Source: Escherichia phage ime. From it: a stretch of DNA of 64,000 bases. The stretch lies in sequence record MN850576.1; one strand, 5' to 3'. The position numbers and the translations under genes were made by a program. The notes beneath the pieces were generated by a model. It had not been told where the DNA came from. It searched no databases and saw nothing but the letters and a program-made list of their open reading frames with translations. Below are positions 3,977 to 28,482 of the stretch, in pieces. Positions within the stretch are counted from its first letter, which is position 1, and every line of letters begins with the position of its first letter.

Positions 3977-4011
3977 TAGTGTATTTTGTTTTCAACAAGA
4001 GGGGGCCATTT

Positions 4012-4251
4012 ATGTACAAGTCATTCTCAATCTACTCAAGACAGGCGAAACACTACACAGAGATCCTGATCACTCAGAAAAAGTCTGTAGAAGGTGAGTG
4101 GGAGTATCACCATAAAATGTTGCGTCCAGATTGGGTTTTTGATAGACTTATTGCTATGATCCCTCTTGGAGAAGTATACCCTCTGACAGGTCATAGGGAT
4201 GCTTGGGATTTAATTGATTACATAGATTCATTTAAGGAGCCTAGATTATGA
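4012..4251 (+). CDS. hypothetical protein
   Basis: Internal ATG of track ORF 3979..4251 with AGAGGGGG RBS. Confidence 0.4.
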   Translation: MYKSFSIYSRQAKHYTEILITQKKSVEGEWEYHHKMLRPDWVFDRLIAMIPLGEVYPLTGHRDAWDLIDYIDSFKEPRL

Positions 4252-4646
4252 AGATTGAGATTACTAAAGAAGGTAAGAAAGTGTCCGGCAACTATGCAAC
4301 AGTAATTCGGGATTTAATGTTTGAAGCCACCAAGATCGGTACATCTAAAGTTGGTCAAACTGTTAGTGTGAAAAGTAATATCGCCACAGGAGAGAAGGTA
4401 TTCATTGTGGTCAAAGGGCAGGATCCCGTGGAAGGAACAGTGGGCCGAGGTGGCTACCTGTGCATTTCTGAAGAGCCGCGTATGTTAGTGGCTGACGCTA
4501 CTATGGGTGGGAAACGTGTGTGCGAGGCGGATGAGGTAATGATTATCCAACCTGTTGATCCAGATGACCCAGCAACTTGGGTGGTAGGAAATGAAATCTT
4601 CTCTTTAGAAGAGTTATCCTTCCCAGCACCGCGCTCTGTTCAGTAA
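4248..4646 (+). CDS. hypothetical protein
   Basis: ORF track; TAAGGAG RBS; ATGA start/stop overlap. Confidence 0.5.
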   Translation: MKIEITKEGKKVSGNYATVIRDLMFEATKIGTSKVGQTVSVKSNIATGEKVFIVVKGQDPVEGTVGRGGYLCISEEPRMLVADATMGGKRVCEADEVMIIQPVDPDDPATWVVGNEIFSLEELSFPAPRSVQ

Positions 4647-4683
4647 TAATTTATCTTACCAGGGACGGTAGGTAGGAGGTAGC

Positions 4684-4917
4684 ATGAAAGTTAAATTTCT
4701 TACAGATTTAGGGTACCCTTCCTTGGTTGACTGTGTTGGTAAAATTGTGGAAGCAAAACGGCTATCTGCAAACGAGAATGTTGTCCTGGTTAAAGGGAAT
4801 GATTTACTAGCTGCAGGTGCAGAGTCTGGCAGGATCTCTCCTGATTATATGTATTACCTATCTTTAAGTAATCTGCCAGAGCGAGGCGGTAAAGGCCTTG
4901 AAGTTGTGGAGGAGTGA
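4684..4917 (+). CDS. small protein, paralog family A (MKVKxL ... KGxDLxxAGA ... EVVEE)
   Basis: TAGGAGG RBS; shared motifs with 8329, 8546, 10418, 10686 ORFs. Confidence 0.5.
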   Translation: MKVKFLTDLGYPSLVDCVGKIVEAKRLSANENVVLVKGNDLLAAGAESGRISPDYMYYLSLSNLPERGGKGLEVVEE

Positions 4918-4922
4918 CAGGT

Positions 4923-5447
4923 ATGCTTCTGATTAACTGGGAAGACCTCTATGGGGACAAAGACCCTGTTGCGTTTGTTGATCGTAGGTGGAGATATACT
5001 GAAGAACAACTGGCGGCAAAAAATTTAACTGCAAAACGCAGAAAGATCATCCAGTGCAAGTACAAATACGCACAGTTCGCTGCAAAAGTGTCTCCACAAA
5101 TCGAGAGCTTTGTGCTTAAATTGTATGACGAGTACCTCAAATTCAAATTGGATTTTGTGCAGGTGTACCGTGCACAGGTACGACCAGATACCAACATATG
5201 TAGATGGAAGGTTGTTTGTGAAGGTAAAGATTTGCCGCTCAGCTTGACAATTGAGTGGCGTTATGGGTATCATGAGTGTGGTCTGTATGATATTTGGGAT
5301 GTCATTGTAGATCCTGCTAAGCATCTGAACACAGAGGAGCTGGAATATATCAATAAGGTTATTCTCGATATGTTTTTCAGCTACACACATGAAAACTCTG
5401 AGAAAGAACGGGATAATTTTCTTGACACCCTCAGCGACCATTTGTAG
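4923..5447 (+). CDS. hypothetical protein
   Basis: ATG 4923 with GGAGGAG RBS (track ORF begins at GTG 4914). Confidence 0.55.
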   Translation: MLLINWEDLYGDKDPVAFVDRRWRYTEEQLAAKNLTAKRRKIIQCKYKYAQFAAKVSPQIESFVLKLYDEYLKFKLDFVQVYRAQVRPDTNICRWKVVCEGKDLPLSLTIEWRYGYHECGLYDIWDVIVDPAKHLNTEELEYINKVILDMFFSYTHENSEKERDNFLDTLSDHL

Positions 5448-5477
5448 TGTACAATTTAACCTACAAAGGGAGGACCA

Positions 5478-5705
5478 ATGAGTATAAATGTTGTGCTAAT
5501 AGCTTACCTGGTAATGTCCGTTATAACAGCGGTATTCTTGACAGGTGTATGCATCGTGTCCAGACGAAGGGTGAAGTTTGATGATTTTATCACCATCATC
5601 ACTGCTGCACCTTTTTGGCCTGTTGTTATCTTCATCGTAATAATGTGCCTAGTTGATTACTACAAGAATATCAGGAAGGAGAGTAGGGATGGAGACCGCA
5701 CCTAA
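5478..5705 (+). CDS. small membrane protein
   Basis: AAGGGAGG RBS; hydrophobic segments. Confidence 0.5.
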   Translation: MSINVVLIAYLVMSVITAVFLTGVCIVSRRRVKFDDFITIITAAPFWPVVIFIVIMCLVDYYKNIRKESRDGDRT

Positions 5706-5841
5706 AACTATCTATACTGTTCTTAAAGAGATTGCGTTCTACGCAGATCTTAGCCAGGCACCTTTATGGGAAAAGAGCATGTATTTAAAATGGTGCGTTA
5801 ATTTAGGGAGACCTTCCAGTGTTTCAAGCCATGTTTATTGA
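5689..5841 (+). CDS. hypothetical small protein
   Basis: Internal ATG of track ORF 5653..5841 with GGAAGGAG RBS. Confidence 0.3.
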   Translation: METAPKTIYTVLKEIAFYADLSQAPLWEKSMYLKWCVNLGRPSSVSSHVY

Positions 5842-5906
5842 GATGCTATCTGGGATATTGTTACTGGTAGCCATCTTAGGTGGTGCAGTTCTGATGTATA
5901 ACTATC

Positions 5907-6110
5907 TTGAAAAAGGAGACAGCAATGGCAAAAAATAAATCTTTAGAGCAGGCTGAAAACCTTCTCCACGAGCTGGTAAAGGAGTGGAAAGTTGAATACT
6001 CAGATTTTAATGCACGAGAGGGTGAAGATTATTGGCCTACGGAGCGCTCAGAGGGCGAATGGTATCAAGATTTCATAGAGTGGTTATATCAGACGTGCGA
6101 TGAGGGGTGA
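5907..6110 (+). CDS. hypothetical protein
   Basis: AAAAAGGAG RBS. Confidence 0.45.
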   Translation: MKKETAMAKNKSLEQAENLLHELVKEWKVEYSDFNAREGEDYWPTERSEGEWYQDFIEWLYQTCDEG

Positions 6111-6112
6111 CG

Positions 6113-6568
6113 ATGTTTGTTAAATATGTAAAAACGTGCCTCAACAATCTTGGTAGAGAGCATTGGTACACCTTGCTTGAAAAAGGAGAAATTTTAACAA
6201 AATCTGGAAAGATAACTTTAATACCCTTGGACGATAAAGACCCGTCACTACTTATCATAGATGATTACGTTACAGGTGTGTCGTACGAGGTCTCTGTGGA
6301 GAGGTTAATACGCAGATCTGGAGGTCCTTATGACCGAAGAGAGTATGTTTTCGATTCTATTACAGAGAAGGAAGATCCGTCTCTAATGTTTAGGATGGTA
6401 ATCAGGGATATGAAATCATCTATAAATAGGATCGTAAAGGACATTAAGGAACCTTTTAGAGTAAAAGTTAAGAAGTTTTTCGATTCTAAGATTAACATAC
6501 TCGCCGTTGCACTAGGTGTAGTTCAACTTCTGTTAATTTTGCACTATTTTGGACTACTATTTAAGTAG
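6113..6568 (+). CDS. hypothetical protein with C-terminal hydrophobic segment
   Basis: ATG 6113 after GAGGGGTG. Confidence 0.5.
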   Translation: MFVKYVKTCLNNLGREHWYTLLEKGEILTKSGKITLIPLDDKDPSLLIIDDYVTGVSYEVSVERLIRRSGGPYDRREYVFDSITEKEDPSLMFRMVIRDMKSSINRIVKDIKEPFRVKVKKFFDSKINILAVALGVVQLLLILHYFGLLFK

Positions 6569-6630
6569 TGGTTGAGATATGGCACAAAGGATGTGCCATA
6601 GTGAAATAAACTAAGAAAGAGGTAGAGAGA

Positions 6631-6978
6631 ATGCCAAAGATTAAAACGTTATTAATGTGGGTAGCTGTTTTAGCTTTTATAGGGTACTGGACTTGGGAAA
6701 CTGAATTAAAAGATATCGGATATACCAGTCTTGAGAGCAAGGCGTGCATTGGTATAACCGATGCATTCAGGCAAAATGCTATGGATCACGAATGTGTCGA
6801 TGCAGACATAGATGATAAACTGTCTAAGGACAAAGACTTCTACCACGGGTATGCTTTGCTTGACAGTGGGGACACTGTAGAGTTCTGGTCGTGGTTTCGT
6901 GAAGATGGAACAATAAAAACAGCAGTAAAAATCTCCAACAAAGAGTTAATGCTGTTGCAGCAGAAGGAGGTTCAATGA
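6631..6978 (+). CDS. hypothetical protein with N-terminal hydrophobic/signal segment
   Basis: AAGAAAGAGG RBS. Confidence 0.5.
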   Translation: MPKIKTLLMWVAVLAFIGYWTWETELKDIGYTSLESKACIGITDAFRQNAMDHECVDADIDDKLSKDKDFYHGYALLDSGDTVEFWSWFREDGTIKTAVKISNKELMLLQQKEVQ

Positions 6979-7262
6979 TCTGGATATCCTATGCGGATGG
7001 CACCATGCTGTATACTGCGGGTACCCGATACGAAGTTCAGGAGAACGATAAAAAATTTATCGTAAGAACATTTGACAAGGACGACAACCTTTTGCTAGAA
7101 TTGACTTACAAGGTTGGAGAGGTATCCAATATCCAATTGGATTGTGGTCATAAAGATAACCCACTCAAAAAACCTGGAATAGGCAAGGCTTCAGAAGAAC
7201 GTTTGTCTCGTATTGCAGAAAGCGTTTCTACACAAAAATCTAAGAAGGGGACTAGAAAATGA
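6975..7262 (+). CDS. hypothetical protein
   Basis: AGAAGGAGG RBS; ATGA overlap. Confidence 0.5.
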   Translation: MIWISYADGTMLYTAGTRYEVQENDKKFIVRTFDKDDNLLLELTYKVGEVSNIQLDCGHKDNPLKKPGIGKASEERLSRIAESVSTQKSKKGTRK

Positions 7263-7453
7263 AAAACTTACGTTTTAACACTTATTACTACAACACATTG
7301 AATGATTTGTATTATATTGTTCGAAGTAAAAGTCCTGAAACAGTCCTATTCTGCCGCGAACCTTTCAAAGGGGAGGAAGTAGAGTCTGAGATGAATGTTA
7401 GCCAGATCACCTCTTTGTTGCTCTCAGGTGCAATGGAAGAAGCAATATTCTAA
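7259..7453 (+). CDS. hypothetical protein
   Basis: ORF track; overlap coupling. Confidence 0.45.
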   Translation: MKNLRFNTYYYNTLNDLYYIVRSKSPETVLFCREPFKGEEVESEMNVSQITSLLLSGAMEEAIF

Positions 7454-7470
7454 ACCAGGCGGGGGGTTTT

Positions 7471-7656
7471 ATGAAGCACTATTGCCTGTCTGGTAGAATG
7501 GGTGCAGATTGTGATTGGGTTTTCTTAAAACTTGTCAGCATTCGAGAGTTCATCCCAGAGGAAGAGCAAGAAAGCGAGCTGATGTCATGGATCAACCATT
7601 ACGGTAACACTTTTCGGCATGTTAAGGTAGAAGAGTTGCCAAGCGAGGCTGATTGA
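7471..7656 (+). CDS. hypothetical protein
   Basis: ORF track; G-rich RBS. Confidence 0.45.
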   Translation: MKHYCLSGRMGADCDWVFLKLVSIREFIPEEEQESELMSWINHYGNTFRHVKVEELPSEAD

Positions 7657-7658
7657 CT

Positions 7659-7748
7659 ATGATTGCATCAATATTAACGTTTATGGGTGGCGTGGCATTC
7701 GGATTCATTGTTTGCCTGTTTATAGTGATTATGTCTATGCGAGGCTGA
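7659..7748 (+). CDS. small hydrophobic peptide (29 aa), below track cutoff
   Basis: ATG 2 nt after upstream stop; hand-translated MIASILTFMGGVAFGFIVCLFIVIMSMRG. Confidence 0.3.
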   Translation: MIASILTFMGGVAFGFIVCLFIVIMSMRG

Positions 7749-7751
7749 ATT

Positions 7752-8048
7752 ATGAAACTTTTTGAGTGGTTTAAAAAGTTTAAATATAAAGCTGTAGCCA
7801 TCGTGCCGTGGTCCATTCAGTGGGTTGATGAAGGTGGTCTACCGATACCTGGTGACAAAGATACTGGGTACTGGATTATGATGGAGAACGGGTTTGGAAA
7901 GCGAAAGTATACGTGCACAAACTCTACTCGATCTGCACTTAATAGAGTTCCTGGTTACAAACTTATGGTTGTGTGGAAAATGTCAGGCGTGCCTCCAGCC
8001 AATGCTCAATTTCTTACTGACAATCCGACCACGGTAGAGGGAGATTGA
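7752..8048 (+). CDS. hypothetical protein
   Basis: ORF track. Confidence 0.5.
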   Translation: MKLFEWFKKFKYKAVAIVPWSIQWVDEGGLPIPGDKDTGYWIMMENGFGKRKYTCTNSTRSALNRVPGYKLMVVWKMSGVPPANAQFLTDNPTTVEGD

Positions 8049-8050
8049 TA

Positions 8051-8332
8051 ATGAAAAAGATTAACAGTAGTGAAGTAGAGTTTAAACTTGTCGGAAAAGG
8101 CACTTACTGGGAAGTTCGTCAAAAGGTATATTTGTTCGGTATTATTCCCTACTGGTCTAAATTCTACTGGGGAGCTAACGAGTGGGGAAGATACGCCACC
8201 AAATCAATGGCACTTATTGGTATAGCAGAGTACATTGCAGCCCGAGATAGGGTTGGAACCACTTATTACTACACTGCTGACGATATTCGTAACAGTGTTT
8301 ACATCCCACAACCGCCTGAGGGAGACCGTTGA
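8051..8332 (+). CDS. hypothetical protein
   Basis: ATG 8051 (track ORF starts at TTG 8045). Confidence 0.5.
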   Translation: MKKINSSEVEFKLVGKGTYWEVRQKVYLFGIIPYWSKFYWGANEWGRYATKSMALIGIAEYIAARDRVGTTYYYTADDIRNSVYIPQPPEGDR

Positions 8333-8556
8333 TGAAAGTTAAAGTTTTAGATTCAAGCTTCTATATTGGTCAGGAGCCCTTAGTGGGGAAAGTGTTTACC
8401 GCTATCCCTAACGAAGATTATCCTGACCTTTTAAAAATAAAAGGTGCAGATCTTATTTCCGCTGGTGCATCTCAGGACTGCTTTGACAGCCAGTGGACCT
8501 ACAACTTTGCCCTTGGTGAGGATGTAGAGATAGTGGAGGACGAGAATGAAGGTTAA
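8329..8556 (+). CDS. small protein, paralog family A
   Basis: MMKVKVLD...KGADLISAGA motif. Confidence 0.5.
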   Translation: MMKVKVLDSSFYIGQEPLVGKVFTAIPNEDYPDLLKIKGADLISAGASQDCFDSQWTYNFALGEDVEIVEDENEG

Positions 8557-8800
8557 AATTCTTGATTCTAACGTCTACTTGGGACAATCCTTCCTGAAGG
8601 GAAAGGTCGTTCCTGCGGTATACTTTGAAGGGTTGCCGTGGGATGATCCTGTGCGGCAACATCGCAGTTATGTAGGCCACAACGTGGTGTTTATCTTGGG
8701 ATCAGACCTGATCGCTGCTGGTGCACCGGAATATTATTTCGGGGAAGAATCCTATTATGCCTTTGGGGCAGGGTCAGATGCAGAGATTGTAGAGCTGTGA
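8546..8800 (+). CDS. small protein, paralog family A
   Basis: MKVKILD...GSDLIAAGA...EIVEL. Confidence 0.5.
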   Translation: MKVKILDSNVYLGQSFLKGKVVPAVYFEGLPWDDPVRQHRSYVGHNVVFILGSDLIAAGAPEYYFGEESYYAFGAGSDAEIVEL

Positions 8801-8812
8801 TGGGTAACCGTT

Positions 8813-9211
8813 GTGAAAAATAAACTGTTCAAAGTTACAATGAAAATTCGCGGAGCTTGGAGCGTAAAGCAAGGGCGTATCCCAGAATTTGAGAAAGACT
8901 TCTACGTAGTCTCCACCTCGGAGGAGGCTGCATGCTGGCAGGCTGGCTATGCATATGCAAGAACCTGGTACGAAGGATACCAGACTGGTGGCTATGACGG
9001 AGAAATTATCAGCAAGGGTGTAGAAGAAATTAATGTGTTGACAAGTGAAAAAGTTTTTGTTATAGTGCATCCAGATTCCAGAGTGAAGCATTACTGGAAT
9101 GCCAGAACAAAAACTTGGACACCGTTTGCAGATTCTGCTACACCACTTTTAAACCAGAAAGCTCTTGACTCTGTCCCGAGCTATGGGGTTGTTGAAGAAA
9201 AGCTAAACTGA
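8813..9211 (+). CDS. hypothetical protein (paralog of 11018..11413)
   Basis: Shared FVxxHPxSxxxYW...WTP motif. Confidence 0.5.
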   Translation: MKNKLFKVTMKIRGAWSVKQGRIPEFEKDFYVVSTSEEAACWQAGYAYARTWYEGYQTGGYDGEIISKGVEEINVLTSEKVFVIVHPDSRVKHYWNARTKTWTPFADSATPLLNQKALDSVPSYGVVEEKLN

Positions 9212-9228
9212 AACGGTGAGGTACTAAC

Positions 9229-9519
9229 ATGATTGATTTAGTTCTAGACACTGATAACACCGGAGCGTTTAAAAAGGATGGTGTAACAAGCGTTGACCAA
9301 TCATTCCCTGCCAAGATTGACTCAAAATGGACCTACAAGTTTGATGGAGAGATCTTCGCAAATGATGAGAAGGTTGTAGATGCTGCAGCCATTTTGAACG
9401 CTCTAGGGTACGACCCTGTGAATTCTTTGATCAAGGATCCTGTTGAGTTTGCAGAGTATGTTCGAAAAATGGCAGATCTTGCTGTGGATATTTTAAAAAC
9501 TATCGACAACAATCTGTAA
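9229..9519 (+). CDS. hypothetical protein
   Basis: ORF track; GAGG RBS. Confidence 0.5.
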   Translation: MIDLVLDTDNTGAFKKDGVTSVDQSFPAKIDSKWTYKFDGEIFANDEKVVDAAAILNALGYDPVNSLIKDPVEFAEYVRKMADLAVDILKTIDNNL

Positions 9520-9525
9520 AAACTG

Positions 9526-9554
9526 TTGACACAACGCTTCAGATTTAGTATCAT
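9526..9554 (+). promoter_or_regulatory. sigma70-like promoter (TTGACA-17-TATCAT)
   Basis: TTGACA 9526-9531, TATCAT 9549-9554, upstream of HPF gene. Confidence 0.5.
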
Positions 9555-10685: not shown

Positions 10686-11018
10686 ATGAAAGTACGCTTT
10701 ATTGGTGAAACAATTCCTGTGCATCTCCGGTCGCCTGAGGATTCTGCAGATCTTGCATCTCAAAAGGCGAGAGGTTATGATAAGAAAGTAACCTCAACTG
10801 ATGTAGTGCTTGAGGCTACTAGTCTACCTGACCCTGCTGCATTCTTTAATCATTATGGGTACTATTTCAGCAATCTGATGAATATCGGTGAGCTTGTGTT
10901 TATTAGTGGTGGAGAGATTGTTAGCAAGCTTGGCGGCGATCCGGATGTCTTTCATGAAACCTGTCCTTTTGCATTTGTGGTAGGTTCAGATGTGGAAGTT
11001 ATTGAGGAGGTGCGGTAA
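10686..11018 (+). CDS. small protein, paralog family A
   Basis: MKVRFIGE...VVGSDVEVIEE; ATG 10686. Confidence 0.5.
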   Translation: MKVRFIGETIPVHLRSPEDSADLASQKARGYDKKVTSTDVVLEATSLPDPAAFFNHYGYYFSNLMNIGELVFISGGEIVSKLGGDPDVFHETCPFAFVVGSDVEVIEEVR

Positions 11019-11413
11019 TGGTAAGCCTATACCGTGTTGAGTATAGCTCAGATACTGTATACAACGTAAGAAGCAAAGATCGCAGCGACAGAGTGCAAGA
11101 AATGTATGTTCTTGCCGACAGTCCGTTATCTGCAGCGTTCAAGGCAGGGGCTCTTGCATCTCGTTGGAAATTTGAAGGCGGATCTTTCTATGAAGAAACC
11201 CTTGAAGATTCTGTTGTTATTTCTTCTGTAGAGGTTTCAGATGACTACGAAGGGAAAAAGTTCGTAATGCGGCACCCACACAGCAACATTGCGTACTACT
11301 GGGATGTTCTGAACAACGAGTGGACCCCAGATCTTCAGAAGGCTACTGTGCTAACACCGTTTTTGGCAGATAAGTTCCCACCAGAAGGTAATTTATCCGC
11401 ACTGTTTCAGTAA
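11018..11413 (+). CDS. hypothetical protein (paralog of 8813..9211)
   Basis: Shared HPxSNIAYYWD...WTP motif. Confidence 0.5.
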   Translation: MVSLYRVEYSSDTVYNVRSKDRSDRVQEMYVLADSPLSAAFKAGALASRWKFEGGSFYEETLEDSVVISSVEVSDDYEGKKFVMRHPHSNIAYYWDVLNNEWTPDLQKATVLTPFLADKFPPEGNLSALFQ

Positions 11414-16992: not shown

Positions 16993-17244
16993 AGCCATGC
17001 CATTCGTTTGCATGACAATAATTATACATGACAATAATCGCACTGATTATAATTAGCATGACATAATATAAAAGCAGGGCAACTATTAGCAGATCTATAG
17101 TTGCCTTGCTTGTTATGTCATGATTAACTAAATACAAGGCAACTATGATCTGATTAATAGTTTGCAGACAAACTATCACGGGGGTGATGGTTACTGCTTT
17201 TATATTATGTCGCGACTCCGTCGCGCCATGCCATTCGTTTGCAT
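16993..17244. repeat. 20-bp direct repeats (GCCATGCCATTCGTTTGCAT) flanking nested inverted repeats; candidate ori/pac
   Basis: Direct repeats at ~16993-17012 and 17225-17244; inverted-repeat arms 17060-17077/17194-17211; palindrome GGCAACTAT-N10-ATAGTTGCC 17078-17105; ATAGTTTG-CAGA-CAAACTAT 17157-17176. Confidence 0.6.
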
Positions 17245-19405: not shown

Positions 19406-19573
19406 CTTCAAGATAAATGTTACCCCACCCCATGGCAGATGTCAACGGTTTTTATAGTTCTTATATGACAGGCAGGCCCGGTGATTGTCTCCACCCGTCG
19501 CCAGGTGCCTGCCGTGAAACAAGTATAACAAAAAACAGGACCATTGCAAGCCCTGTTTTGTAGTTTATAAGGA

Positions 19574-21445: not shown

Positions 21446-21730
21446 TTATTTATTGATAGCGTGCAGCGGGAAAGGTACGCCAGGTTGATAGATAACTTTT
21501 ACAACCTCATCAGAGCAAAAGAAATTACAAAATTCACCCTGGTAAGCCTCATCCTCTTTTAATTCTTCATCAACATACTGGAAAAAGTAGTCAATGCTTG
21601 GATAATCCTGACCGGGATTATATTCAACCATGGTTAATAACAATTCTTGATCATTCCGTATGATATGCATACCAGCTTTTAAGTATTTGGCTTCCATTTC
21701 TACTACATCGCCAACGGTAACAATAGCCAT
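21446..21730 (-). CDS. hypothetical protein
   Basis: ORF track. Confidence 0.5.
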   Translation of the reverse strand: MAIVTVGDVVEMEAKYLKAGMHIIRNDQELLLTMVEYNPGQDYPSIDYFFQYVDEELKEDEAYQGEFCNFFCSDEVVKVIYQPGVPFPLHAINK

Positions 21731-21939
21731 GGTTTTAACTCCTATCTATCCGGTTAATGATTGGAGGCCTCACCGCCCCCCCCCGACACCCTTTATTATC
21801 CATATTGTAGGACTTGATGCAAGTACTTCTTTAAAAATTTTTTAAGCGCCTTGGGGGCCGCTGTAACGCCAAAATAATAAAGGCTATGCAACCGCATAGC
21901 CTTTATGTGATTATATCGCTGCAGGCCCTGCCAGGGGCC

Positions 21940-22307: not shown

Positions 22308-22628
22308 TTAGTTTGAGAAAACATCGTTCACAATAGCGATCACAATGCCGCCCACCTTGTCACGGTCAACAATGCACAAATCACCATAAATCATGTGGTA
22401 GTCTGGATGATCTTTGACGGAATAGTCGATAAGTGTTTTCTTGTCATCCAGCTTACTAACTTCCATTCTCATAACGATATGAGAATCATCAAAGGCATTA
22501 TTCCGAAAAGTCATAACCTGACCGCCAGGGCACCCGGTGATTTCCACCTCCACGCCGTCTACGATCTGACCATCAAAGAAATAAAGATTATTAGCCTGGA
22601 TAAACATGATCATTACTCCTTTTTGCAC
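22308..22628 (-). CDS. hypothetical protein
   Basis: ORF track; start may be an internal Met. Confidence 0.5.
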   Translation of the reverse strand: MQKGVMIMFIQANNLYFFDGQIVDGVEVEITGCPGGQVMTFRNNAFDDSHIVMRMEVSKLDDKKTLIDYSVKDHPDYHMIYGDLCIVDRDKVGGIVIAIVNDVFSN

Positions 22629-22651
22629 TGATTATTTTAACAGGGTTTAAA

Positions 22652-22696
22652 TTTACTTTATTGATGGCCCTGGAGTCAAGGCCATCTAAAAATAAA
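22652..22696 (-). promoter_or_regulatory. 45-bp repeat copy 1: candidate promoter with palindromic operator over -35
   Basis: Identical to 26367-26411; contains GATGGCC-N10-GGCCATC with TTGACT on the minus strand. Confidence 0.45.
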
Positions 22697-22698
22697 TT

Positions 22699-22899
22699 TT
22701 ACAGGCCTACAATCTCTTTAATTCGTTTTACTGCTGCCTCAGCGCCTTGAGGGTAAAAATTATGGTAACCAATCACGCGAGTGATACTAATCGCCGTTTG
22801 ATGATCTTCATAATCACCTTTAAAGATTTCTTGACCGTCAATCAGCACGGCAATTTTTTCTTCTTTTTTGAAGTTAATAACGCGGATATTGTTGCTCAT
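22699..22899 (-). CDS. hypothetical protein
   Basis: ORF track. Confidence 0.45.
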   Translation of the reverse strand: MSNNIRVINFKKEEKIAVLIDGQEIFKGDYEDHQTAISITRVIGYHNFYPQGAEAAVKRIKEIVGL

Positions 22900-22933
22900 T
22901 TTGTTTCTCCTTTTGGAACTTTGTCTATGCGGT

Positions 22934-22948
22934 GGGGAGTGTCTCCCC
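22934..22948 (-). promoter_or_regulatory. 5' UTR hairpin (GGGGAG-TGT-CTCCCC)
   Basis: ~35 nt upstream of start at 22899. Confidence 0.45.
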
Positions 22949-22995
22949 GTTGATTGTTATTATCCATATTCTGGATCGGATTGCAACACTCAGGG

Positions 22996-23036
22996 AGAAA
23001 AAAATTTGAAAAGTTAGGCCCCCATGATCGGGGGCC
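22996..23036 (-). terminator. rho-independent terminator (minus strand)
   Basis: GGCCCCC-N6-GGGGGCC hairpin followed on minus strand by TTTTTTTCTC. Confidence 0.5.
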
Positions 23037-23040
23037 GTTC

Positions 23041-23160
23041 TTAGTTACTTACAGCGATAAAGTACATCCCTACGCCTAGCAATATTTCAAGGGCGATAAT
23101 CTCAAGCCATACCATAACGCGGCGCACCTTATCGGTGCATGGCTTATCCTTGGTTGTCAT
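23041..23160 (-). CDS. small protein (39 aa) with hydrophobic C-terminus, below track cutoff
   Basis: ATG with GGAAAGGGGGAGACG RBS; hand-translated. Confidence 0.3.
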   Translation of the reverse strand: MTTKDKPCTDKVRRVMVWLEIIALEILLGVGMYFIAVSN

Positions 23161-23269
23161 CGTCTCCCCCTTTCCTTCTGGTAGTAGTGACGCGATCTAC
23201 AATGGCCCCCAGGAGTCCTATCACGACACACACCACAAGAAAAATTATCTCCGCTGTTGTTCGATCCAT
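23144..23269 (-). CDS. small membrane peptide
   Basis: Internal ATG of track ORF 23144..23329 with GAGGA RBS. Confidence 0.3.
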   Translation of the reverse strand: MDRTTAEIIFLVVCVVIGLLGAIVDRVTTTRRKGGDDDNQG

Positions 23270-23379
23270 TGTTATAAAATTCCTCAAGATCAGGCCTGAA
23301 AATAAAGCGTTCGTTATTGAATCCGTCACGCCAGGCGGCTGGCTTCAAATCTCCACTAAAGGGATTAATTAACGTGGCA

Positions 23380-23751
23380 TTATTTAAACGGTTGGCCCAC
23401 ATATTTTCTATTCCTCTCAAATAGGCGATCCGCCTCAGTTAAACAAATCTCATGGGCGTGATCTCTGGTTTTAGCTTCATCGAAAACCTGTTGTGCAAGG
23501 CTGCAACGTAGGGAGACTGGAAGATCACTATAATAGGCGTTGACAAACGTTTGAGCGTCGTACAGGTCTGAAAATACTTTACCCTTTCTATTATTCCCCT
23601 TGTCAACAATTGCAAGGATAACCAATACAATAGTTGCAACCACCCCCAGGAAAATAGATATAATAAACCATAAAAAGGCGGATCTTCCCATCTTGCCAGC
23701 GATCCAGGCGTTAAACAAGGCAACCAATACAGCCAAAATAATAAATTCCAT
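23380..23751 (-). CDS. membrane protein
   Basis: ATG 23751 with AAAAGAGG RBS; two predicted TM segments. Confidence 0.5.
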   Translation of the reverse strand: MEFIILAVLVALFNAWIAGKMGRSAFLWFIISIFLGVVATIVLVILAIVDKGNNRKGKVFSDLYDAQTFVNAYYSDLPVSLRCSLAQQVFDEAKTRDHAHEICLTEADRLFERNRKYVGQPFK

Positions 23752-23815
23752 TCTATGTACCTCTTTTACAGTTCTGATTAACAATAAGGCGGCAAATATG
23801 CCGCCTGCTACCTGA

Positions 23816-24196
23816 TTAAAAATTATCGCCGTAAATCTTTCCGCTTTCTACCCATACCACCACGCGAGGCATACTATCCCACACGTCTTGTTTTAGATTG
23901 AGCGCGTGCAATTCTTCGGTGGTGCTCATACCGGGCACGGGCTGATTGTATACTGCAAAACGACCGCCTGCATAATCATAGGCCAGGGTTAAATCACACT
24001 GGATCATCTTTTTGATCATGGCATTAAGCATGGCGTTAGCCGCATATTGATCACGTTTTAAAGGCAACTCTTTGATTAGTTTGCGATAGTTTTCGATATG
24101 GTCGCACACTGTTTCACGAGGAAGATCTTTCATATCTTCACGGAATGTAACCAGGTTAAACATAACGGTGTCAATAGCCTTGGTAGTGTTTTTCAT
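23816..24196 (-). CDS. hypothetical protein
   Basis: ORF track; AGAGGATAA RBS. Confidence 0.5.
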   Translation of the reverse strand: MKNTTKAIDTVMFNLVTFREDMKDLPRETVCDHIENYRKLIKELPLKRDQYAANAMLNAMIKKMIQCDLTLAYDYAGGRFAVYNQPVPGMSTTEELHALNLKQDVWDSMPRVVVWVESGKIYGDNF

Positions 24197-24221
24197 GATG
24201 TTATCCTCTTTGTTTTGTGTT

Positions 24222-24240
24222 GGGGCAAACGTCTTGCCCC
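24222..24240 (-). promoter_or_regulatory. 5' UTR hairpin (GGGGCAA-ACGTC-TTGCCCC)
   Basis: ~25 nt upstream of start at 24196. Confidence 0.45.
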
Positions 24241-24286
24241 CTTGAGTTTTAATATAGCAGGTTTTTAGGTTATTGCAACACTTTAT

Positions 24287-24910
24287 TTATGAAAAAGTCA
24301 TCTCACCATATTCATCGACATCAAACCGCCAATCATTGGCCTCGATAAGGCCGATCAGGTTTTCTGCGGTGAACTGTTCTAGATAGGCCTCCTCCAGGTC
24401 TACGTAAACCTTGCGGGATAGCTCCCGTACCGTCTCGGTGATCAGTTCTTCCAGGTCTTCCACTTTGTTTTCTTGTTTGGCGGTCAGATCTAGCCAAGTG
24501 GTATCAATGTACCCGCTTACAGTGTTTTCATGGCTGTAATGGCTGTACTTGTCGCGTTCAACACTGGCTGATAACTCGCCATCGTGCATTGTGCCGAACA
24601 AGTGACGAATTGATCGGAACTTGGTCAGGGCCTTTACTTTACGCAAAAATTTTTCTAAATCCACGTTTTCAGCACTGATTGACGCGCCGTCACCCTGGCA
24701 CCAAAAGCCTGACCAATGTACTTCGGTATCTTCAAGGCCATACTCTGGAAAAACATATTCTTTATAGTATTCAATTACACTTTCTGCAAAAAAGTTATCC
24801 CCGCTGTGTTCTTCTCTTTCGCGGACCATTTCAACGGCTTTTTCTTTTTGTTCGTCGGTCAGCACGTCGAAAGATAAATTGTAACCTGCGGTAATGTTAA
24901 CGGTGGTCAT
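24287..24910 (-). CDS. hypothetical protein (207 aa)
   Basis: ORF track; RBS AGGAGAAAA. Confidence 0.55.
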   Translation of the reverse strand: MTTVNITAGYNLSFDVLTDEQKEKAVEMVREREEHSGDNFFAESVIEYYKEYVFPEYGLEDTEVHWSGFWCQGDGASISAENVDLEKFLRKVKALTKFRSIRHLFGTMHDGELSASVERDKYSHYSHENTVSGYIDTTWLDLTAKQENKVEDLEELITETVRELSRKVYVDLEEAYLEQFTAENLIGLIEANDWRFDVDEYGEMTFS

Positions 24911-24938
24911 GATATTTTCTCCTATTTTCTTTGTTAGT

Positions 24939-24957
24939 GGCGGGAAGTTTTCCCGCC
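24939..24957 (-). promoter_or_regulatory. 5' UTR hairpin (GGCGGGAA-GTT-TTCCCGCC)
   Basis: Perfect 8-bp-arm palindrome between candidate promoter (-35 at 24990-24995) and start at 24910. Confidence 0.5.
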
Positions 24958-24984
24958 TGTGTGTTTAAGTATACTTATTGAGGC

Positions 24985-25245
24985 TTACTTGTCAACACTA
25001 TTTTTTAAATTATTGTGGCGCAAAATGTTTAAAATCTCCTCAACGTCATCAACACGGCGGCAATTTTTAAACGCTACCAATTGCCCCATGATTTTAATCA
25101 CTGGGCGGCCTTGCCAGTGCCCCTGAAGAAAGCGCGCCCTGACTTTATCGGTGGAACTATCACGCCACCAAATAGCCTTGTTGTTGCAGTAGTAAAAATT
25201 ATTCAGGATAACATCAACTTTATCAAAATTTTTTAATTTACGCAT
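24985..25245 (-). CDS. hypothetical protein
   Basis: ORF track. Confidence 0.45.
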   Translation of the reverse strand: MRKLKNFDKVDVILNNFYYCNNKAIWWRDSSTDKVRARFLQGHWQGRPVIKIMGQLVAFKNCRRVDDVEEILNILRHNNLKNSVDK

Positions 25246-25435
25246 GGCGTTTACTCCTTTCTCTCTTTGATGTGGTTAGTATAGCTAACCTGTTGACGAT
25301 GTCAATGATATTTTTAACGCCATGAAACGGCCCTGGGCGATGTTTTCAGGTTAAGGGGGGCGATTGCATAGGTGGGGGCCTTTTTGGCGCTTACAGGGCC
25401 AACCAGGGGCGCTATTCGTAGGATAGAAATAAAAA

Positions 25436-25455
25436 GCCCCGCACAATGGCGGGGC
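25436..25455 (-). terminator. rho-independent terminator (possibly bidirectional)
   Basis: GCCCCGC-ACAATG-GCGGGGC flanked by A-run and T-run. Confidence 0.5.
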
Positions 25456-25463
25456 GTTGGTTG

Positions 25464-25661
25464 TTATTTGTCTTTATGGCGGTATCGTTCTGCCTGTCGT
25501 TCACGTTCCAAAAGTAGGCCGGGCAATTTACGATCATAATGATTACGCCAGATCTTCCCAAACCTTTTTGGCTTATTCAGTTTATTGTTACGCTGGCGGC
25601 GTTCTGGCAGCTCTTCGGAATCATGAGGGCGCTTTACAATTTTCTCGAAATTAATTTTCAT
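25464..25661 (-). CDS. small highly basic protein
   Basis: ATG 25661 with AAGGGGGG RBS; K/R-rich. Confidence 0.45.
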   Translation of the reverse strand: MKINFEKIVKRPHDSEELPERRQRNNKLNKPKRFGKIWRNHYDRKLPGLLLERERQAERYRHKDK

Positions 25662-26004
25662 ATATTCCCCCCTTGCTAACTTCAATATTGGCCTGAATAG
25701 CCCGGATACGGCGCTTTATAACTTCCTGATCTGTGTGGTCGTATCCCCAAAAGTCTACAATTTTTGCGCCCCCCGCCTTCAGGCGGTATAGTGTTTCCTG
25801 CATTTTGTAAGCCGGGATCGGTCGCGGTGTTACTTGGTCACCTTCTTTATTTTTATACTTTATAATATAATCTTCGTTATCGTTGAATGCCCAAAATGGA
25901 TATTCTGCAAGGGCGGTACTTCCTCTTTCCTTTTTATCCTGGATCTTATTTACAATTAAAGCCGTAGCAATAGCGCCAATAATAAAACTTGCCCCGCTGA
26001 TCAT
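25651..26004 (-). CDS. membrane-anchored protein
   Basis: ORF track; N-terminal TM. Confidence 0.5.
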   Translation of the reverse strand: MISGASFIIGAIATALIVNKIQDKKERGSTALAEYPFWAFNDNEDYIIKYKNKEGDQVTPRPIPAYKMQETLYRLKAGGAKIVDFWGYDHTDQEVIKRRIRAIQANIEVSKGGIYEN

Positions 26005-26077
26005 GTACTTTCTCCTTTCATGGTGTTAATAAATTATCTTTATAGATGGCCCTGCAACCAGGACCACCGAAAAATAA

Positions 26078-26323
26078 CTATTTCACAATGCCTACAAAAC
26101 AGATCCCGCCTTCACCTATATAAGCAATATCGGTCACTTTATAACTTGTCAAGATCTGCTTATTTAGTTCATTAATAAAATCGGTCATTGCGTTGGTGTA
26201 GTTGTCTTCCGTGTCTAAGGCATAATCCCAGGTGTACACCTTTTTACGTCCGAAGCCTTTTACCATGATACGGGCGCTTTTGGTGTTGGTAGGGGCATAA
26301 TATTTGGTGATTAGTGCTGCCAT
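26078..26323 (-). CDS. hypothetical protein
   Basis: ORF track. Confidence 0.45.
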   Translation of the reverse strand: MAALITKYYAPTNTKSARIMVKGFGRKKVYTWDYALDTEDNYTNAMTDFINELNKQILTSYKVTDIAYIGEGGICFVGIVK

Positions 26324-26366
26324 GGTTTTAACTCCTATGCATTAGTTCAGTGTTAACAGTATAAAG

Positions 26367-26411
26367 TTTACTTTATTGATGGCCCTGGAGTCAAGGCCAT
26401 CTAAAAATAAA
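26367..26411 (-). promoter_or_regulatory. 45-bp repeat copy 2: candidate promoter with palindromic operator
   Basis: Identical to 22652-22696. Confidence 0.45.
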
Positions 26412-26412
26412 C

Positions 26413-26808
26413 TCAATAAGTTTTTAGTACTTTCCCGTCCAATCTGTCAAGCTGGATCTCGATAGCTGCAGAAAACCTATTGTAAACCACATCGCCCAGG
26501 GAGTCCAGCCAATCTATGACGTTATATACCTGCTCTTTATTCTTGCAAGTCCGGATCCGTTTCATTACGTAAGACGGATCAATATTAGCGCTCTCGTTGT
26601 TGTGGTCCTGCGCCTGGCCTGCTGCGCTAGTTATAGATTTTACAACCACCTGAAAGGGCTTTAAGGTGCCTTTTGCGTTCATCTCACGCGCTTTTGCGGC
26701 GCGGTTGTTATATGTTACACAACGGCGGCAAATGTTGACCAAATGCATATCAATAATTTTTTCATCGTTTGCCAGTTCGTTCATGATGCGGCGTACGTTC
26801 TTATTCAT
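26413..26808 (-). CDS. hypothetical protein
   Basis: ORF track. Confidence 0.5.
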   Translation of the reverse strand: MNKNVRRIMNELANDEKIIDMHLVNICRRCVTYNNRAAKAREMNAKGTLKPFQVVVKSITSAAGQAQDHNNESANIDPSYVMKRIRTCKNKEQVYNVIDWLDSLGDVVYNRFSAAIEIQLDRLDGKVLKTY

Positions 26809-26827: not shown

Positions 26828-26846
26828 GGCGGGAAACATTCCCGCC
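26828..26846 (-). promoter_or_regulatory. 5' UTR hairpin (GGCGGGAA-ACA-TTCCCGCC)
   Basis: Same arms as 24939-24957; ~20 nt upstream of start at 26808. Confidence 0.5.
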
Positions 26847-26890
26847 TTTTGTGTCTAGTTTACTTAAATTTTGCAGCGTGTCAATGATTT

Positions 26891-28184: not shown

Positions 28185-28300
28185 AAATTCTAAATGAGAA
28201 CTCCTCGCATTTAATAAATTTAATTAGCATGCTAATTACCCTCCGTAACAATTTCCTATAAAACAGTATCCCATAAAATATTCCCATATAGAAATTTTAA

Positions 28301-28482
28301 AAATCCATTTCTGAAAACGAAAAATCGATTTCGTCCCCAAAAATTTCAGGTCGAGAGCTGGAACGATTTCCAGAAAATCCGATTCAGAAAACGAAAAACA
28401 GATCGAGTACTTGGAAATTTATCGAGAAAAATTTTCAGAAAATTCAATCTTTGAAACGAAAAACAGATCGAGTACTTGGAAA
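28301..28482. repeat. degenerate tandem iterons (~65-75 bp period), AT-rich
   Basis: GAAAACGAAAAACAGATCGAGTACTTGGAAA twice (28385/28451) plus variant at 28311; AAATCCATTT motif recurs to 28760. Confidence 0.5.

Follow-up and report, generated by a model that had tools for sequence, protein, structure and literature searches.

A repeated intercistronic hairpin with promoter-like hexamers in the early region of a Vequintavirus may be a PeSL-like composite module

Introduction

The T4-type phages RB49/phi1, PST, and nt-1 carry promoter-early stem-loop (PeSL) cassettes (Arbiol et al., 2010, PMC2839356; Comeau et al., 2014, PMC4122927), for which promoter and terminator activity and mini-circles have been shown experimentally. 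Lambdoid morons are promoter-gene-terminator units, whose insertion is thought to be illegitimate and which lack conserved flanks (PMC2839356). Substrates of E. coli RNase III (Pertzev and Nicholson, 2006, PMC1540722), among them the sites of the T7 early region (R1.1 and others), span about two helical turns broken by an asymmetric internal loop, which confines cleavage to one strand so that a protective 3' hairpin remains.

Here we describe a repeat located between small, minus-strand early genes of a Vequintavirus (rV5-like coliphage) in a 64,000-nt stretch of Escherichia phage ime (MN850576.1), hereafter called the window. We lean, by a modest degree, toward the interpretation that this repeat is a composite intercistronic early-region module that combines a hairpin, a promoter, and recombination homology, and for which the PeSL promoter/stem-loop cassette of the T4-type phages is the nearest known counterpart.

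Results

Two exact copies and one diverged copy follow stop codons of small early genes

The 45-mer TTTACTTTATTGATGGCCCTGGAGTCAAGGCCATCTAAAAATAAA occurs exactly at 22652-22696 (copy A) and 26367-26411 (copy C/B) on the plus strand, as the original prediction from the sequence had reported, and 100 dinucleotide-preserving shuffles yielded zero matches with up to 3 mismatches allowed. The two copies are alike over 48 nt with one mismatch (22649-22696 compared to 26364-26411). Both of the copies counted in that prediction are therefore real, but a diverged third copy (D) at 26034-26077, with 77% identity, had been overlooked. Copy A sits between the 66-aa and 99-aa genes, copy C/B between the 131-aa and 81-aa genes, and copy D between the 81-aa and 117-aa genes (Table 1). 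The element begins 2 nt (copy A) or 1 nt (copy C/B) past the stop codon of the upstream gene, and 44 nt or 43 nt, respectively, separate its end from the next start codon; hence, the predicted placement directly after a stop codon held, and the distance to the start codon fell at the low end of the proposed 40-70 nt. The transcription unit that contains copies C/B and D opens with a canonical strong sigma70 promoter and closes with a canonical intrinsic terminator. Two genes lie between copy D and this terminator, neither with its own promoter, and a promoter scan found none for the 117-aa gene.

Table 1. Positions of the repeat copies, neighboring genes, and transcription signals in the window
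Feature	Position	Strand	Evidence or remark
Copy A, full sense-strand hairpin	22649..22699	-	exact 45-mer match; fold; covariance model R1 81.5 bits
Copy C/B, same hairpin, recombinant junction	26364..26414	-	exact 45-mer; fold; R1 86.1 bits
Copy D, diverged family member	26032..26079	-	77% identity; fold; R1 60.1 bits; cross-genome covariation
Candidate -35 TTGACT in hairpin loop, copy A	22674..22679	-	promoter scan 9/12; TTGAC invariance
Candidate -10 TAAATT, copy A, 18-bp spacer	22650-22655	-	promoter scan
Candidate -35 TTGACT, copy C/B	26389..26394	-	promoter scan 9/12
Candidate -10 TAAACT, copy C/B, 18-bp spacer	26365-26370	-	promoter scan
Gene upstream of copy A, 66 aa	22699..22899	-	rV5 gp174-like
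Gene downstream of copy A, 99 aa (ATG at 22607)	22308..22607	-	phrog_7366
Gene upstream of copy C/B, 131 aa	26413..26808	-	rV5 gp189-like, phrog_13245
Gene between copies C/B and D, 81 aa	26078..26323	-	rV5 gp186-like, phrog_3199
Gene downstream of copy D, 117 aa	25651..26004	-	rV5 gp185-like
Canonical strong sigma70 promoter TTGACA-N16-TAAACT	26857..26884	-	opens unit with copies C/B and D
Leader hairpin after promoter at 26884	26828-26846
Canonical intrinsic terminator GCCCCGC...GCGGGGC, then TTTTTATTT	25436..25455	-	closes unit with copies C/B and D

The sense-strand hairpin is conserved as RNA

The original prediction read the minus strand of the repeat as a TTGACT hexamer within a GATGGCC/GGCCATC inverted repeat with 7-bp arms. 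This reading is correct, but the arms are in fact part of a longer bipartite helix of 21 bp, which takes in the AT-rich flanks and is formed by the sense (minus) strand RNA of every window copy. In copy A, an 11-bp AU-rich lower helix is joined through a 2x3-nt internal loop to a 10-bp GC-rich upper helix capped by the loop ACUC. Predicted minus-strand folds reached -23.6 kcal/mol (z -5.8) for copy A, -26.5 kcal/mol (z -5.9) for copy C/B, and -24.4 kcal/mol (z -5.3) for copy D, compared to -10.8 to -17.2 kcal/mol (z -1.2 to -3.9) for the plus-strand folds of the three copies (copy A, -16.0, z -2.1; copy D, -10.8, z -1.2). The same minus-strand bias was seen in 47 unique variants from about 24 genomes. 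Strand-asymmetric pairing had not been part of the original prediction, and neither had the location of copy C/B on an indel junction, described below. Rfam contained no family for the hairpin element.

Pairing was kept in 97.2% of 945 pair cells in 45 variants, compared to 35-55% when the partner was slid. The upper helix was 100% paired, with four varying pairs that all changed to G·U or C-G, and two-sided compensatory changes were found at four lower-helix pairs. The covariation score of 0.193, compared to 0.114, was reached by 0 of 500 shuffles; the sequences counted are related to one another and also served to derive the structure. There were 118 G·U cells (9 columns) versus 7 A·C cells (2 columns), which implies that selection acts on the transcript and not on a DNA palindrome. 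Stem changes A21G, C25U (twice), U27C, and C34U all keep sense-strand RNA pairing, and 4 of the 5 break the DNA palindrome. Copy D retains the helix architecture through G·U and compensatory changes, even though its DNA palindrome is degraded and its loop has lost the -35 (no TTGAC). At site A, diversity was 0.008 at paired positions, 0.13 at unpaired positions, and 0.05-0.10 in the flanks. From these substitution patterns, we conclude that purifying selection acts on the hairpin as RNA. Its role as RNA may be in processing and stability or in attenuation.

Promoter-like hexamers overlap the hairpin

The hexamers scored 9/12 as a promoter with a suboptimal 18-bp spacer, compared to 10-11/12 for genuine early promoters nearby, and the scan returned 37 hits at the element's score versus 24.5 expected in shuffled sequence. 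Nevertheless, TTGAC is unchanged in 34 canonical variants, including A30 and C31 of the loop, whereas the following two loop bases are hypervariable; the EdH4 copies read TTGACA. The strong promoter at 26884 likewise has AAGTAAACT as its -10 context, and (ATA)AAGTAAACT is common to it and the EC.P2 promoter. Moreover, the element's TAAATT in KKE7M stands in register for the -10 TAAACT of the single promoter of muut, with the same leader hairpin downstream of the aligned -10 boxes in both. Because TAAAYT aligns in this way with a real -10, we consider it plausible that the element is a promoter. Pairing alone could explain the conservation of the -10 candidate and of T56, since both fall within the lower helix, and the copy D hairpin without a -35 implies that a promoter is dispensable for the conserved function of the family.

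Elsewhere in the window, an unrelated hairpin at 19559-19522 also has a -35 in its loop, showing this architecture to be native to the phage.

Recombination between copies is associated with loss of a two-gene cassette

In EdH4, the closest relative, two direct copies flank a 621-bp two-gene cassette that is missing in the window. Copy C/B has the left flank of EdH4 copy 5376 and the right flank of EdH4 copy 5997. Judged by these flanks, copy C/B is the fusion of two direct copies after loss of the cassette. The window is at a distance of 0.33% from cassette-bearing EdH4. Five genomes without the cassette represent four flank haplotypes that are scattered on the flank tree, a distribution indicating that this loss has recurred across three or more flank backgrounds; recurrence could partly reflect transfer of the deletion allele. 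Identical copies within a genome were found in 13 of 37 cases, compared to 7.6 expected (P about 0.016). KKE7M, which belongs to another subfamily, has in common with these phages a 474-bp block (93.5% identity) that stops at the element; this self-contained unit consists of promoter P192, a single small gene, and the hairpin. The suggestion in the original prediction that the repeat is a recombination substrate was supported by the fused junction at copy C/B and by the repeated loss in several lineages.

Discussion

The element resembles PeSLs in several respects. It is intergenic and begins at the upstream stop codon in AT-rich surroundings; it combines sigma70-like -35 and -10 hexamers with a stem-loop that overlaps the -35, as in one of the five PeSL subclasses; and it is followed by the Shine-Dalgarno sequence and start codon of the next gene in a region of small ORFans. 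As for PeSLs, a precise indel of one cassette occurs between copies in close relatives with the crossover inside the repeat, and the repeat forms the boundary of a block common to a different phage lineage. By contrast, the element is found in Vequintavirus instead of T4-type phages and has no sequence similarity to PeSLs. It is present in three to four almost identical copies per genome, whereas the PeSLs of RB49/phi1 number in the dozens and are degenerate, and its 21-bp bipartite helix has an internal loop, no U-tract, and no G4...C4 motif. PeSL activities rest on experiments and those of the Vequintavirus element on sequence, and the RNA-level selection detected by covariation is a further difference.

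REP and other intercistronic stem-loops stabilize upstream mRNA segments in bacterial operons. Like REP, the element forms a stable hairpin immediately 3' of a cistron within an operon and occurs more than once in the genome, where its copies can recombine with one another; unlike REP, it is phage-borne, has no copies in bacterial genomes, and contains promoter-like hexamers. The self-contained block shared with KKE7M recalls the lambdoid morons, except that here the homology is supplied by the flanking regulatory sequences themselves.

Among other interpretations, a possible but clearly less favored one is that the repeat works purely as an intercistronic RNA hairpin, in which RNase III cleavage in the internal loop or a block to 3' exonucleases would produce separately stable messages, as at the R sites of the T7 early region, with the promoter resemblance incidental and recombination a by-product of repetition. 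Sense-strand covariation and the G·U asymmetry are consistent with this idea, as are the absence of a U-tract, the location of copies inside operons with canonical bounding signals, the modest promoter score, and the retention in copy D of the hairpin and not of the -35. The helix of 21 bp, or about two turns, the asymmetric internal loop, and a U-A/U·G step beside the terminal loop, comparable to the canonical distal box, have been described for substrates of E. coli RNase III (PMC1540722), and the T7 sites are likewise intercistronic hairpins in a polycistronic phage early mRNA. However, the element has no sequence relationship to those sites, and in this comparison, which is a prediction of cleavage only, the spacing from distal to proximal box is off by one in the better register. 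In the two registers tried, a G-C pair falls at proximal-box position 2 or position 4, reported to be binding or catalytic antideterminants (PMC1540722), and RNase III reactivity is therefore uncertain. Nor does an RNA role account for loop bases A30 and C31, which are fixed next to two hypervariable bases, or for the register of TAAAYT with a real -10.

It is improbable that the element is an intrinsic rho-independent terminator, despite its stable GC-rich hairpin directly after a stop codon and the annotation of phage Murica, which labels the same 45 nt as such (copies A and D). Stem-loops of T4-type PeSLs did lower read-through in reporter assays (PMC2839356). Yet no U-run follows the upper helix (AAUAAAGUAAA) or the full helix of the element, and the terminator scan passed over it while calling genuine terminators, such as that at 25455-25436 with its TTTTTATTT tail. 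Efficient termination at copy D would also silence the two promoterless genes that follow. The lack of a U-tract and these promoterless genes thus disfavor strong termination in the manner of PeSLs.

We regard as very unlikely the original proposal of a palindromic operator, read here to mean that a dimeric phage or host protein on GATGGCC-N10-GGCCATC would occlude the -35 and co-regulate the downstream genes. A perfect 7-bp inverted repeat does bracket the -35-like hexamer, conservation across genomes is very strong and at sites A to C exceeds what structure alone needs, and the 3' arm CAGGGCCATC.ATAAAG is invariant, copy D included. But the stem changes preserve pairing only in the sense RNA, through G·U, and most of them disrupt the palindrome. 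In addition, the half-sites of copy D match at only 5 of 7-8 positions, yet conservation extends to this copy, with covariation in its lower AU helix, and the helix runs 11 bp past the palindrome, where compensatory changes would be superfluous for an operator. The argument that identity of the two copies implies co-regulation also fails, since both carry the commonest allele of the repeat family, and their perfect identity therefore needs no co-regulation.

A selfish or mobile repeat (MITE- or REP-like, or a homing-endonuclease target) spreading by its own mechanism is hardly credible, for although the element is repeated, palindromic, intergenic, indel-associated, and present in one phage of another subfamily, its three to four near-identical copies per genome occupy orthologous sites in a single orientation, searches of 185,579 species genomes and 5,426 E. 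coli genomes gave no copy, neither target-site duplications nor genes for an associated nuclease or transposase were seen, and the neighboring proteins are small and without assigned function.

In the composite module that we favor, read-through from upstream promoters produces the bipartite hairpin directly 3' of the upstream stop codon, and the same DNA has TTGACN within the loop and, 18 bp further downstream, TAAAYT, both in the sequence setting and register of the real sigma70 promoters of this phage group. For the upstream message, the hairpin is probably a 3'-end marker that acts as an exonuclease barrier, as a site of RNase III-type processing, or as a weak attenuator; an efficient terminator is less likely because there is no U-tract and the copies lie inside operons. 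As direct repeats, the copies also serve as portable homology: recombination between two of them removed the two-gene cassette here and independently in other genomes, and a promoter-gene-element block bounded on one side by the element was transferred to another subfamily's phage. Transcription of the next gene is probably re-initiated at the embedded promoter, and each small gene would therefore be an insulated, exchangeable unit.

Copies, setting and distribution of the repeat

The window contains two exact copies of the 45-mer TTTACTTTATTGATGGCCCTGGAGTCAAGGCCATCTAAAAATAAA, as originally noted (copies A and C/B; see table), and none of 100 dinucleotide-preserving shuffles contained a match, even at three mismatches. 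Similarity between the two copies extends to 48 nt with one mismatch, and a third copy (D) shows 77% identity. A covariance model of the hairpin described below (R1) found these three minus-strand copies and no others in the 64-kb window (86.1 bits for C/B, 81.5 for A, and 60.1 for D), and its plus-strand matches were palindromic echoes with about half the score. A marginal R1 match, which lies near a pair of exact 20-nt repeats, is probably an unrelated hairpin.

Positions of the repeat element and of other features of the region
Feature	Genome	Position	Strand	Description
Copy A	window	22652-22696	minus	exact 45-mer
Copy C/B	window	26367-26411	minus	exact 45-mer, fused junction
Copy D	window	26031-26078	minus	diverged copy
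Marginal R1 match	window	17081-17158	minus	15.9 bits, E about 1
20-nt repeats	window	16994 and 17225		exact
Canonical promoter	window	26884		start of unit containing copies C/B and D
Terminator	window	25455-25436		GCCCCGC...GCGGGGC, then TTTTTATTT
Second composite family	window	26828-26884 and 24939-24995	minus	leader hairpin GGCGGGAA(tgt/aac)TTCCCGCC
Overlapping terminator/promoter	window	19522-19559	minus	11-bp hairpin, AAAACAGGGCU..GGUCCUGUUUU
Terminator/promoter/leader-hairpin unit	window	22940-23036	minus	second hairpin GGGGAGACACTCCCC
Family D1	window	28287-28482		motifs GAAAACGAAAAA and CAGATCGAGTACTTGGAAA
Family D18	window	21726-21745 and 26319-26338		minus strand reads ATAGGAGTTAAAACCATGGC
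Copies flanking the cassette	EdH4	5376 and 5997		left and right flanks, respectively, of copy C/B
Site-C copy	Gotham	9497-9540		lacks GGGCC
Segments missing from rV5_ev146	rV5	3894-9400 and 10841-11352		about 5.5 and 0.5 kb; sites A and C included, respectively
Unannotated ORF	KKE7M	about 6978-7204	minus	about 75 aa

Identity of the window across this region is 98.9% with Escherichia phage EdH4 and 92-96% with about 120 other Vequintavirus (rV5-like) genomes. All genes around the element are on the minus strand, its sense strand, and encode small proteins of unknown function; the neighboring proteins and those of the cassette described below gave no above-threshold Pfam match and matched only PHROGs of unknown function. 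The element starts 0-2 nt past a stop codon with the 5' part TTTATTTTTA, and 29-44 nt separate its end from the next SD and start codon (ATG). Two further repeat families occur in the region. D1 lies in a stretch that seems to be non-coding and has three imperfect direct repeats, each about 57 nt long, at intervals of 65-74 nt. D18 is an exact 20-nt repeat found at two distinct small genes separated by 4.6 kb, and in each it spans the SD and start codon.

GenBank annotations of the same 45 nt conflict, being a promoter (predicted by PhagePromoter) in phage Gotham and a terminator in Murica. The element is not listed in the rV5 genome paper, because the promoter table there demanded 10/12 matches and a 15-17-bp spacer, and a literature search returned no prior description of the repeat and no Vequintavirus transcriptome. 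Five bases in the 3' arm of the upper helix are absent from the Gotham site-C copy, through either decay of the copy or faulty assembly.

A BLAST search of GenBank places the element about three times per genome across 120 records, of which KKE7M (Stephanstirmvirinae) is the sole non-Vequintavirus. A metagenome scan located it on rV5-like contigs of about 137 kb only, contributing four contigs, and a pattern scan of IMG/VR returned 52 loci, almost all of them chance matches to the 15-base pattern, with two useful rV5-like contigs. No copy was found in 185,579 species-representative genomes (GTDB) or in 5,426 complete E. coli genomes, and when 19-30 kb was searched against Rfam (E up to 1), the element had no family and two chance matches lay elsewhere. 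Seventeen Campylobacter jejuni phage records (MG0656xx, "Campylobacter phage", UNVERIFIED) match the E. coli rV5-like region at 92-100% identity; probably their host labels are wrong or the stocks were contaminated.

The element very probably forms a hairpin in sense-strand RNA

Minus-strand RNA folds into one architecture in all three window copies, which comprises two helices, the lower AU-rich with 11 bp and the upper GC-rich with 10 bp, a 2x3-nt internal loop between them, and a 4-nt loop. Folding energies of the three copies were -23.6, -26.5, and -24.4 kcal/mol on the sense strand (z of -5.8, -5.9, and -5.3) compared to -16.0, -17.2, and -10.8 kcal/mol on the plus strand (z of -2.1, -3.9, and -1.2). 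We then gathered all element copies present in rV5-like genomes and metagenomic contigs, about 24 in total. All 47 unique 66-mers share the fold on the sense strand (-20.7 to -30.1 kcal/mol), which was always more stable than the complement (-6.2 to -20.3 kcal/mol).

Covariation was counted in an ungapped alignment of 45 variants. Standard pairs filled 97.2% of 945 pair cells, compared to 35-55% after a shift of the 3' partner by 1-3 columns. The upper helix is paired in 45/45 sequences, where four varying pairs change to G·U or C-G only, and two-sided changes occur at four lower-helix pairs (9-55, 10-54, 12-52, and 13-51), such as U-A to C-G, or A-U through G·U to G-C. The position of the internal loop (UA/AAU) is maintained, with free variation of its bases. 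None of 500 shuffles (mean score 0.114) reached the observed covariation score of 0.193. All of this evidence is to be read in light of the kinship of the variants and of the derivation of the structure from those same sequences. At site A, nucleotide diversity was 0.008 at paired and 0.13 at unpaired positions, compared to 0.053 in the upstream and 0.097 in the downstream flank (250 nt each); the corresponding values at site D were 0.064, 0.11, 0.065, and 0.094. Thus, paired positions at site D evolve at the flank rate, yet their changes retain pairing.

Stem substitutions are transitions on one side, which preserve G·U pairing in the sense RNA and disrupt DNA symmetry: G·U fills 118 cells in nine columns, whereas A·C, which corresponds to G·U on the opposite strand, fills seven cells in two outer columns. 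This asymmetry bears on the earlier proposal that the inverted repeat is a palindromic operator bound by a protein. Symmetry at the DNA level is not maintained, and the operator reading is unsupported, because a dimer-bound DNA palindrome would not give different frequencies of G·U and A·C. The evidence is robust where it rests on the two-sided changes and on the strand asymmetry, and we conclude that the element is very probably a sense-strand RNA hairpin. The gp186-like protein provided no intermediate relatives with which to extend the covariation test, because this family drops from >90% identity in Vequintavirus to <60% in unrelated siphoviruses and Pseudomonas phages.

Repeat copies and cassette loss

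The suggestion that the repeat is a recombination substrate is supported by comparison with relatives. In EdH4 and Alma, copies B and C form a 46-bp exact direct repeat with a spacing of 621 bp, and the interval carries a cassette of one 113-aa and one 39-aa gene. Copy C/B of the window has the two outer flanks of these EdH4 copies, so that the window differs from EdH4 by exactly one repeat plus the spacer, and the cassette genes were not found elsewhere in the window. The fused copy is present in five genomes (the window, magaca, ECP26, phiWec189, and one IMG/VR contig) in four immediate-flank haplotypes, each like a different cassette-bearing lineage. Cassette-less genomes are scattered in a tree of the flanks, in which the window lies 0.33% from EdH4, and phiWec189 clusters with cassette-bearing rV5, UADI, and navn. 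Moreover, phiWec189 switches from rV5-like to UADI-like sequence within about 100 nt of the element. On the simplest reading of these sequences, the cassette would have been lost at least three times independently.

The loop alleles TCC, TTC, and ACC are present at all sites, and the commonest allele is carried by both perfect window copies. Copies were identical in 13 of 37 within-genome pairs, compared to 7.6 ± 2.1 by permutation (P about 0.016), an excess that suggests some exchange between copies. KKE7M and EdH4 have in common a 474-bp block (93.5% identity) that consists of a promoter (P192 in the rV5 annotation), the 113-aa gene, and the element, and that ends exactly at the element. Our confidence that the repeats mediated cassette loss is high. 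As a separate case, rV5_ev146, which lacks two segments of rV5, was considered as an element-mediated deletion and ruled out. Its junction overlaps of 10-15 bp sit away from the element, so that short homologies outside the element also give rise to deletions here.

Probable role of the hairpin

The hairpin probably has a role at the RNA level, as an RNase III processing site, an exonuclease barrier, or a weak attenuator. RNase III substrates in E. coli are intercistronic helices of about two turns with an internal loop, owing to which only one strand is cut and a 3' hairpin remains as protection (Pertzev and Nicholson, PMC1540722). The element matches in form a processing site of the T7 R1.1 type: its helices of 10 and 11 bp are predicted to stack coaxially across the 2x3-nt internal loop, the position-conserved UA/AAU supplies that loop, and U28-A35 and U27·G36 adjoin the terminal loop and resemble the distal box UA/UG (PMC1540722). 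However, the upper helix alone has 10 bp, one below 11, and G-C at position 2 or 4 of the proximal box is reported as inhibitory (PMC1540722). If two middle-box pairs are assumed, G23-C40 falls at position 2; with three, the proximal box is GC/UA/AU as preferred, but G20-C43 falls at position 4, so that neither register tried for the proximal and distal boxes agrees with every published rule. An exonuclease barrier or a weak attenuator, formed by the uncut hairpin, is an equally good fit.

Efficient termination, by contrast, is unlikely to judge from the sequence. An intrinsic terminator has a GC hairpin followed directly by a U-run, whereas AAUAAAGUAAA follows this hairpin, and a terminator scan called genuine sites in the same region, including the one at the end of the unit in which copies C/B and D lie, and did not call the element. 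Efficient termination is further disfavored by this position inside an operon and by the two genes that follow copy D without a promoter of their own.

The element as a candidate promoter

Promoter-like boxes on the sense strand consist of TTGAC(T/A/G) in the loop and upper stem, N18, and TAAA(C/T)T, with scores of 9/12 for the window and 10/12 for EdH4, whose copies read TTGACA. TTGAC is constant in 34/34 canonical variants, and the next two loop bases are hypervariable. Phages of another subfamily place the candidate -10 in register with a real one. In muut (Justusliebigvirus), a single ordinary promoter (TTGACA-N16-TAAACT) is followed by ATATTCATTAA and then by a leader hairpin; in its relative KKE7M, a gene cassette is inserted within the muut-type promoter, and the right junction is an rV5-type element with its TAAATT exactly at the position of the muut TAAACT. 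A third relative, EC.P2, has a different cassette in the same promoter slot, and its right-hand promoter (TTGCAA-N16-TAAACT) has ATAAAGTAAACT in common with the element. The strong window promoter at 26884 has AAGTAAACT.

Other observations argue against a promoter. Many 9/12 matches are expected by chance (37 found compared to 24.5 in shuffles), scores of 10-11/12 are reached by nine canonical early promoters in the vicinity (TTGACA-N16/17-TAnAcT), and copy D keeps the hairpin and lacks a -35. In addition, conservation of the candidate -10 can be explained by pairing alone, because it sits within the lower helix. Of the original promoter reading, the constant TTGAC and the register of TAAAYT hold up, and the weak score and copy D tell against it; since the evidence points both ways, we grade a promoter function as plausible only.

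A different, unrelated hairpin in the window also combines terminator and promoter features. Its loop holds the -35 TTGCAA, a U-run and an extended -10 (TGtTATACT) come next, and it is likewise strand-asymmetric (-14.7 compared to -8.6 kcal/mol). A hairpin with a -35 in its loop therefore belongs to the phage's own regulatory repertoire.

Comparison with PeSL cassettes

By analogy, promoter-early stem-loop (PeSL) cassettes of T4-type phages are the closest described system, and the element may be filed under that kind. A PeSL begins in AT-rich sequence at the stop codon of the gene before it, carries sigma70 boxes and a stem-loop, whose position defines five subclasses (overlap with the -35 is one), and ends with an SD and a start codon; PeSLs sit among ORFans, mediate indels between close relatives, occur as many degenerate consensus copies per genome, and are excised as mini-circles in infection (PMC2839356, PMC4122927). 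Similarly, the element is intergenic, with a stop codon before its AT-rich 5' part and an SD and ATG after it. It has a stable, covariation-backed stem-loop (-21 to -30 kcal/mol and z of about -5 to -6 across the set) at the candidate promoter, with the putative -35 in the loop and upper stem, and it lies in a hyperplastic region of small ORFans, with a precise 621-bp indel relative to EdH4 and the crossover in the repeat.

Most PeSL features thus recur in the element, but not all. The counterparts of the sigma70 boxes, TTGAC(T/A/G)-N18-TAAA(C/T)T, reach 9/12 to 10/12 and have no -35 in copy D, and the long hairpin has no U-tract and is not called by the scan. A PeSL stem-loop acts as a terminator or attenuator, and the position of the element within an operon speaks against strong termination. 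In contrast to the many degenerate PeSLs, the element has few, near-identical copies (three R1 matches in 64 kb), and its phage is a Vequintavirus rather than T4-type. Promoter and terminator activity and mini-circles of the element would be putative. On balance, we lean toward the full composite, PeSL-like reading.

Other promoter/stem-loop composites of unrelated sequence are present near the element. Members of a second family have a strong promoter (TTGACA-N16-TAAACT or TATACT), a near-identical leader hairpin 10 nt on, and then an SD and ATG; the hairpin of the first member is annotated "terminator" in EdH4, though a promoter precedes it and the gene of that promoter follows. This layout recurs in KKE7M, muut, and EC.P2, and a 400-bp "intergenic" gap of KKE7M holds an unannotated ORF with its own promoter and leader hairpin, the positional counterpart of an annotated muut gene. 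Another unit of the window combines a GC hairpin with a T-rich tail, TTGCAA-N16-GATAAT, and a second hairpin that precedes the SD of a 66-aa gene.

Implications

A speculative and rather improbable extension is that the hairpin is a recognition site. A dedicated phage or host factor would bind the constant 3' half (CAGGGCCAUC.AUAAAG) and the constant loop bases AC, process early transcripts, and promote the exchange of promoter-gene-hairpin cassettes, which would be excised and inserted as circles, in an integron-like manner, across Vequintavirinae and Stephanstirmvirinae.

If the composite reading is correct, the conflicting "promoter" and "terminator" labels on the same 45 nt would be accounted for, the PeSL idea of "modular shuffling" would extend past T4-type phages, and the comparative evidence of selection on the stem-loop as sense-strand RNA would supply what PeSL work has lacked. 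For rV5-like phages, which find wide use as candidates for therapy and biocontrol, the sites at which production stocks are prone to deletion would become predictable, and the module would be a compact, testable unit for phage engineering. The variable early region of rV5-like phages would then be assembled from insulated promoter/hairpin/gene units, whose repeated boundaries would be the driver of recurrent loss and exchange of genes, including exchange with phi92-like phages from a different subfamily.
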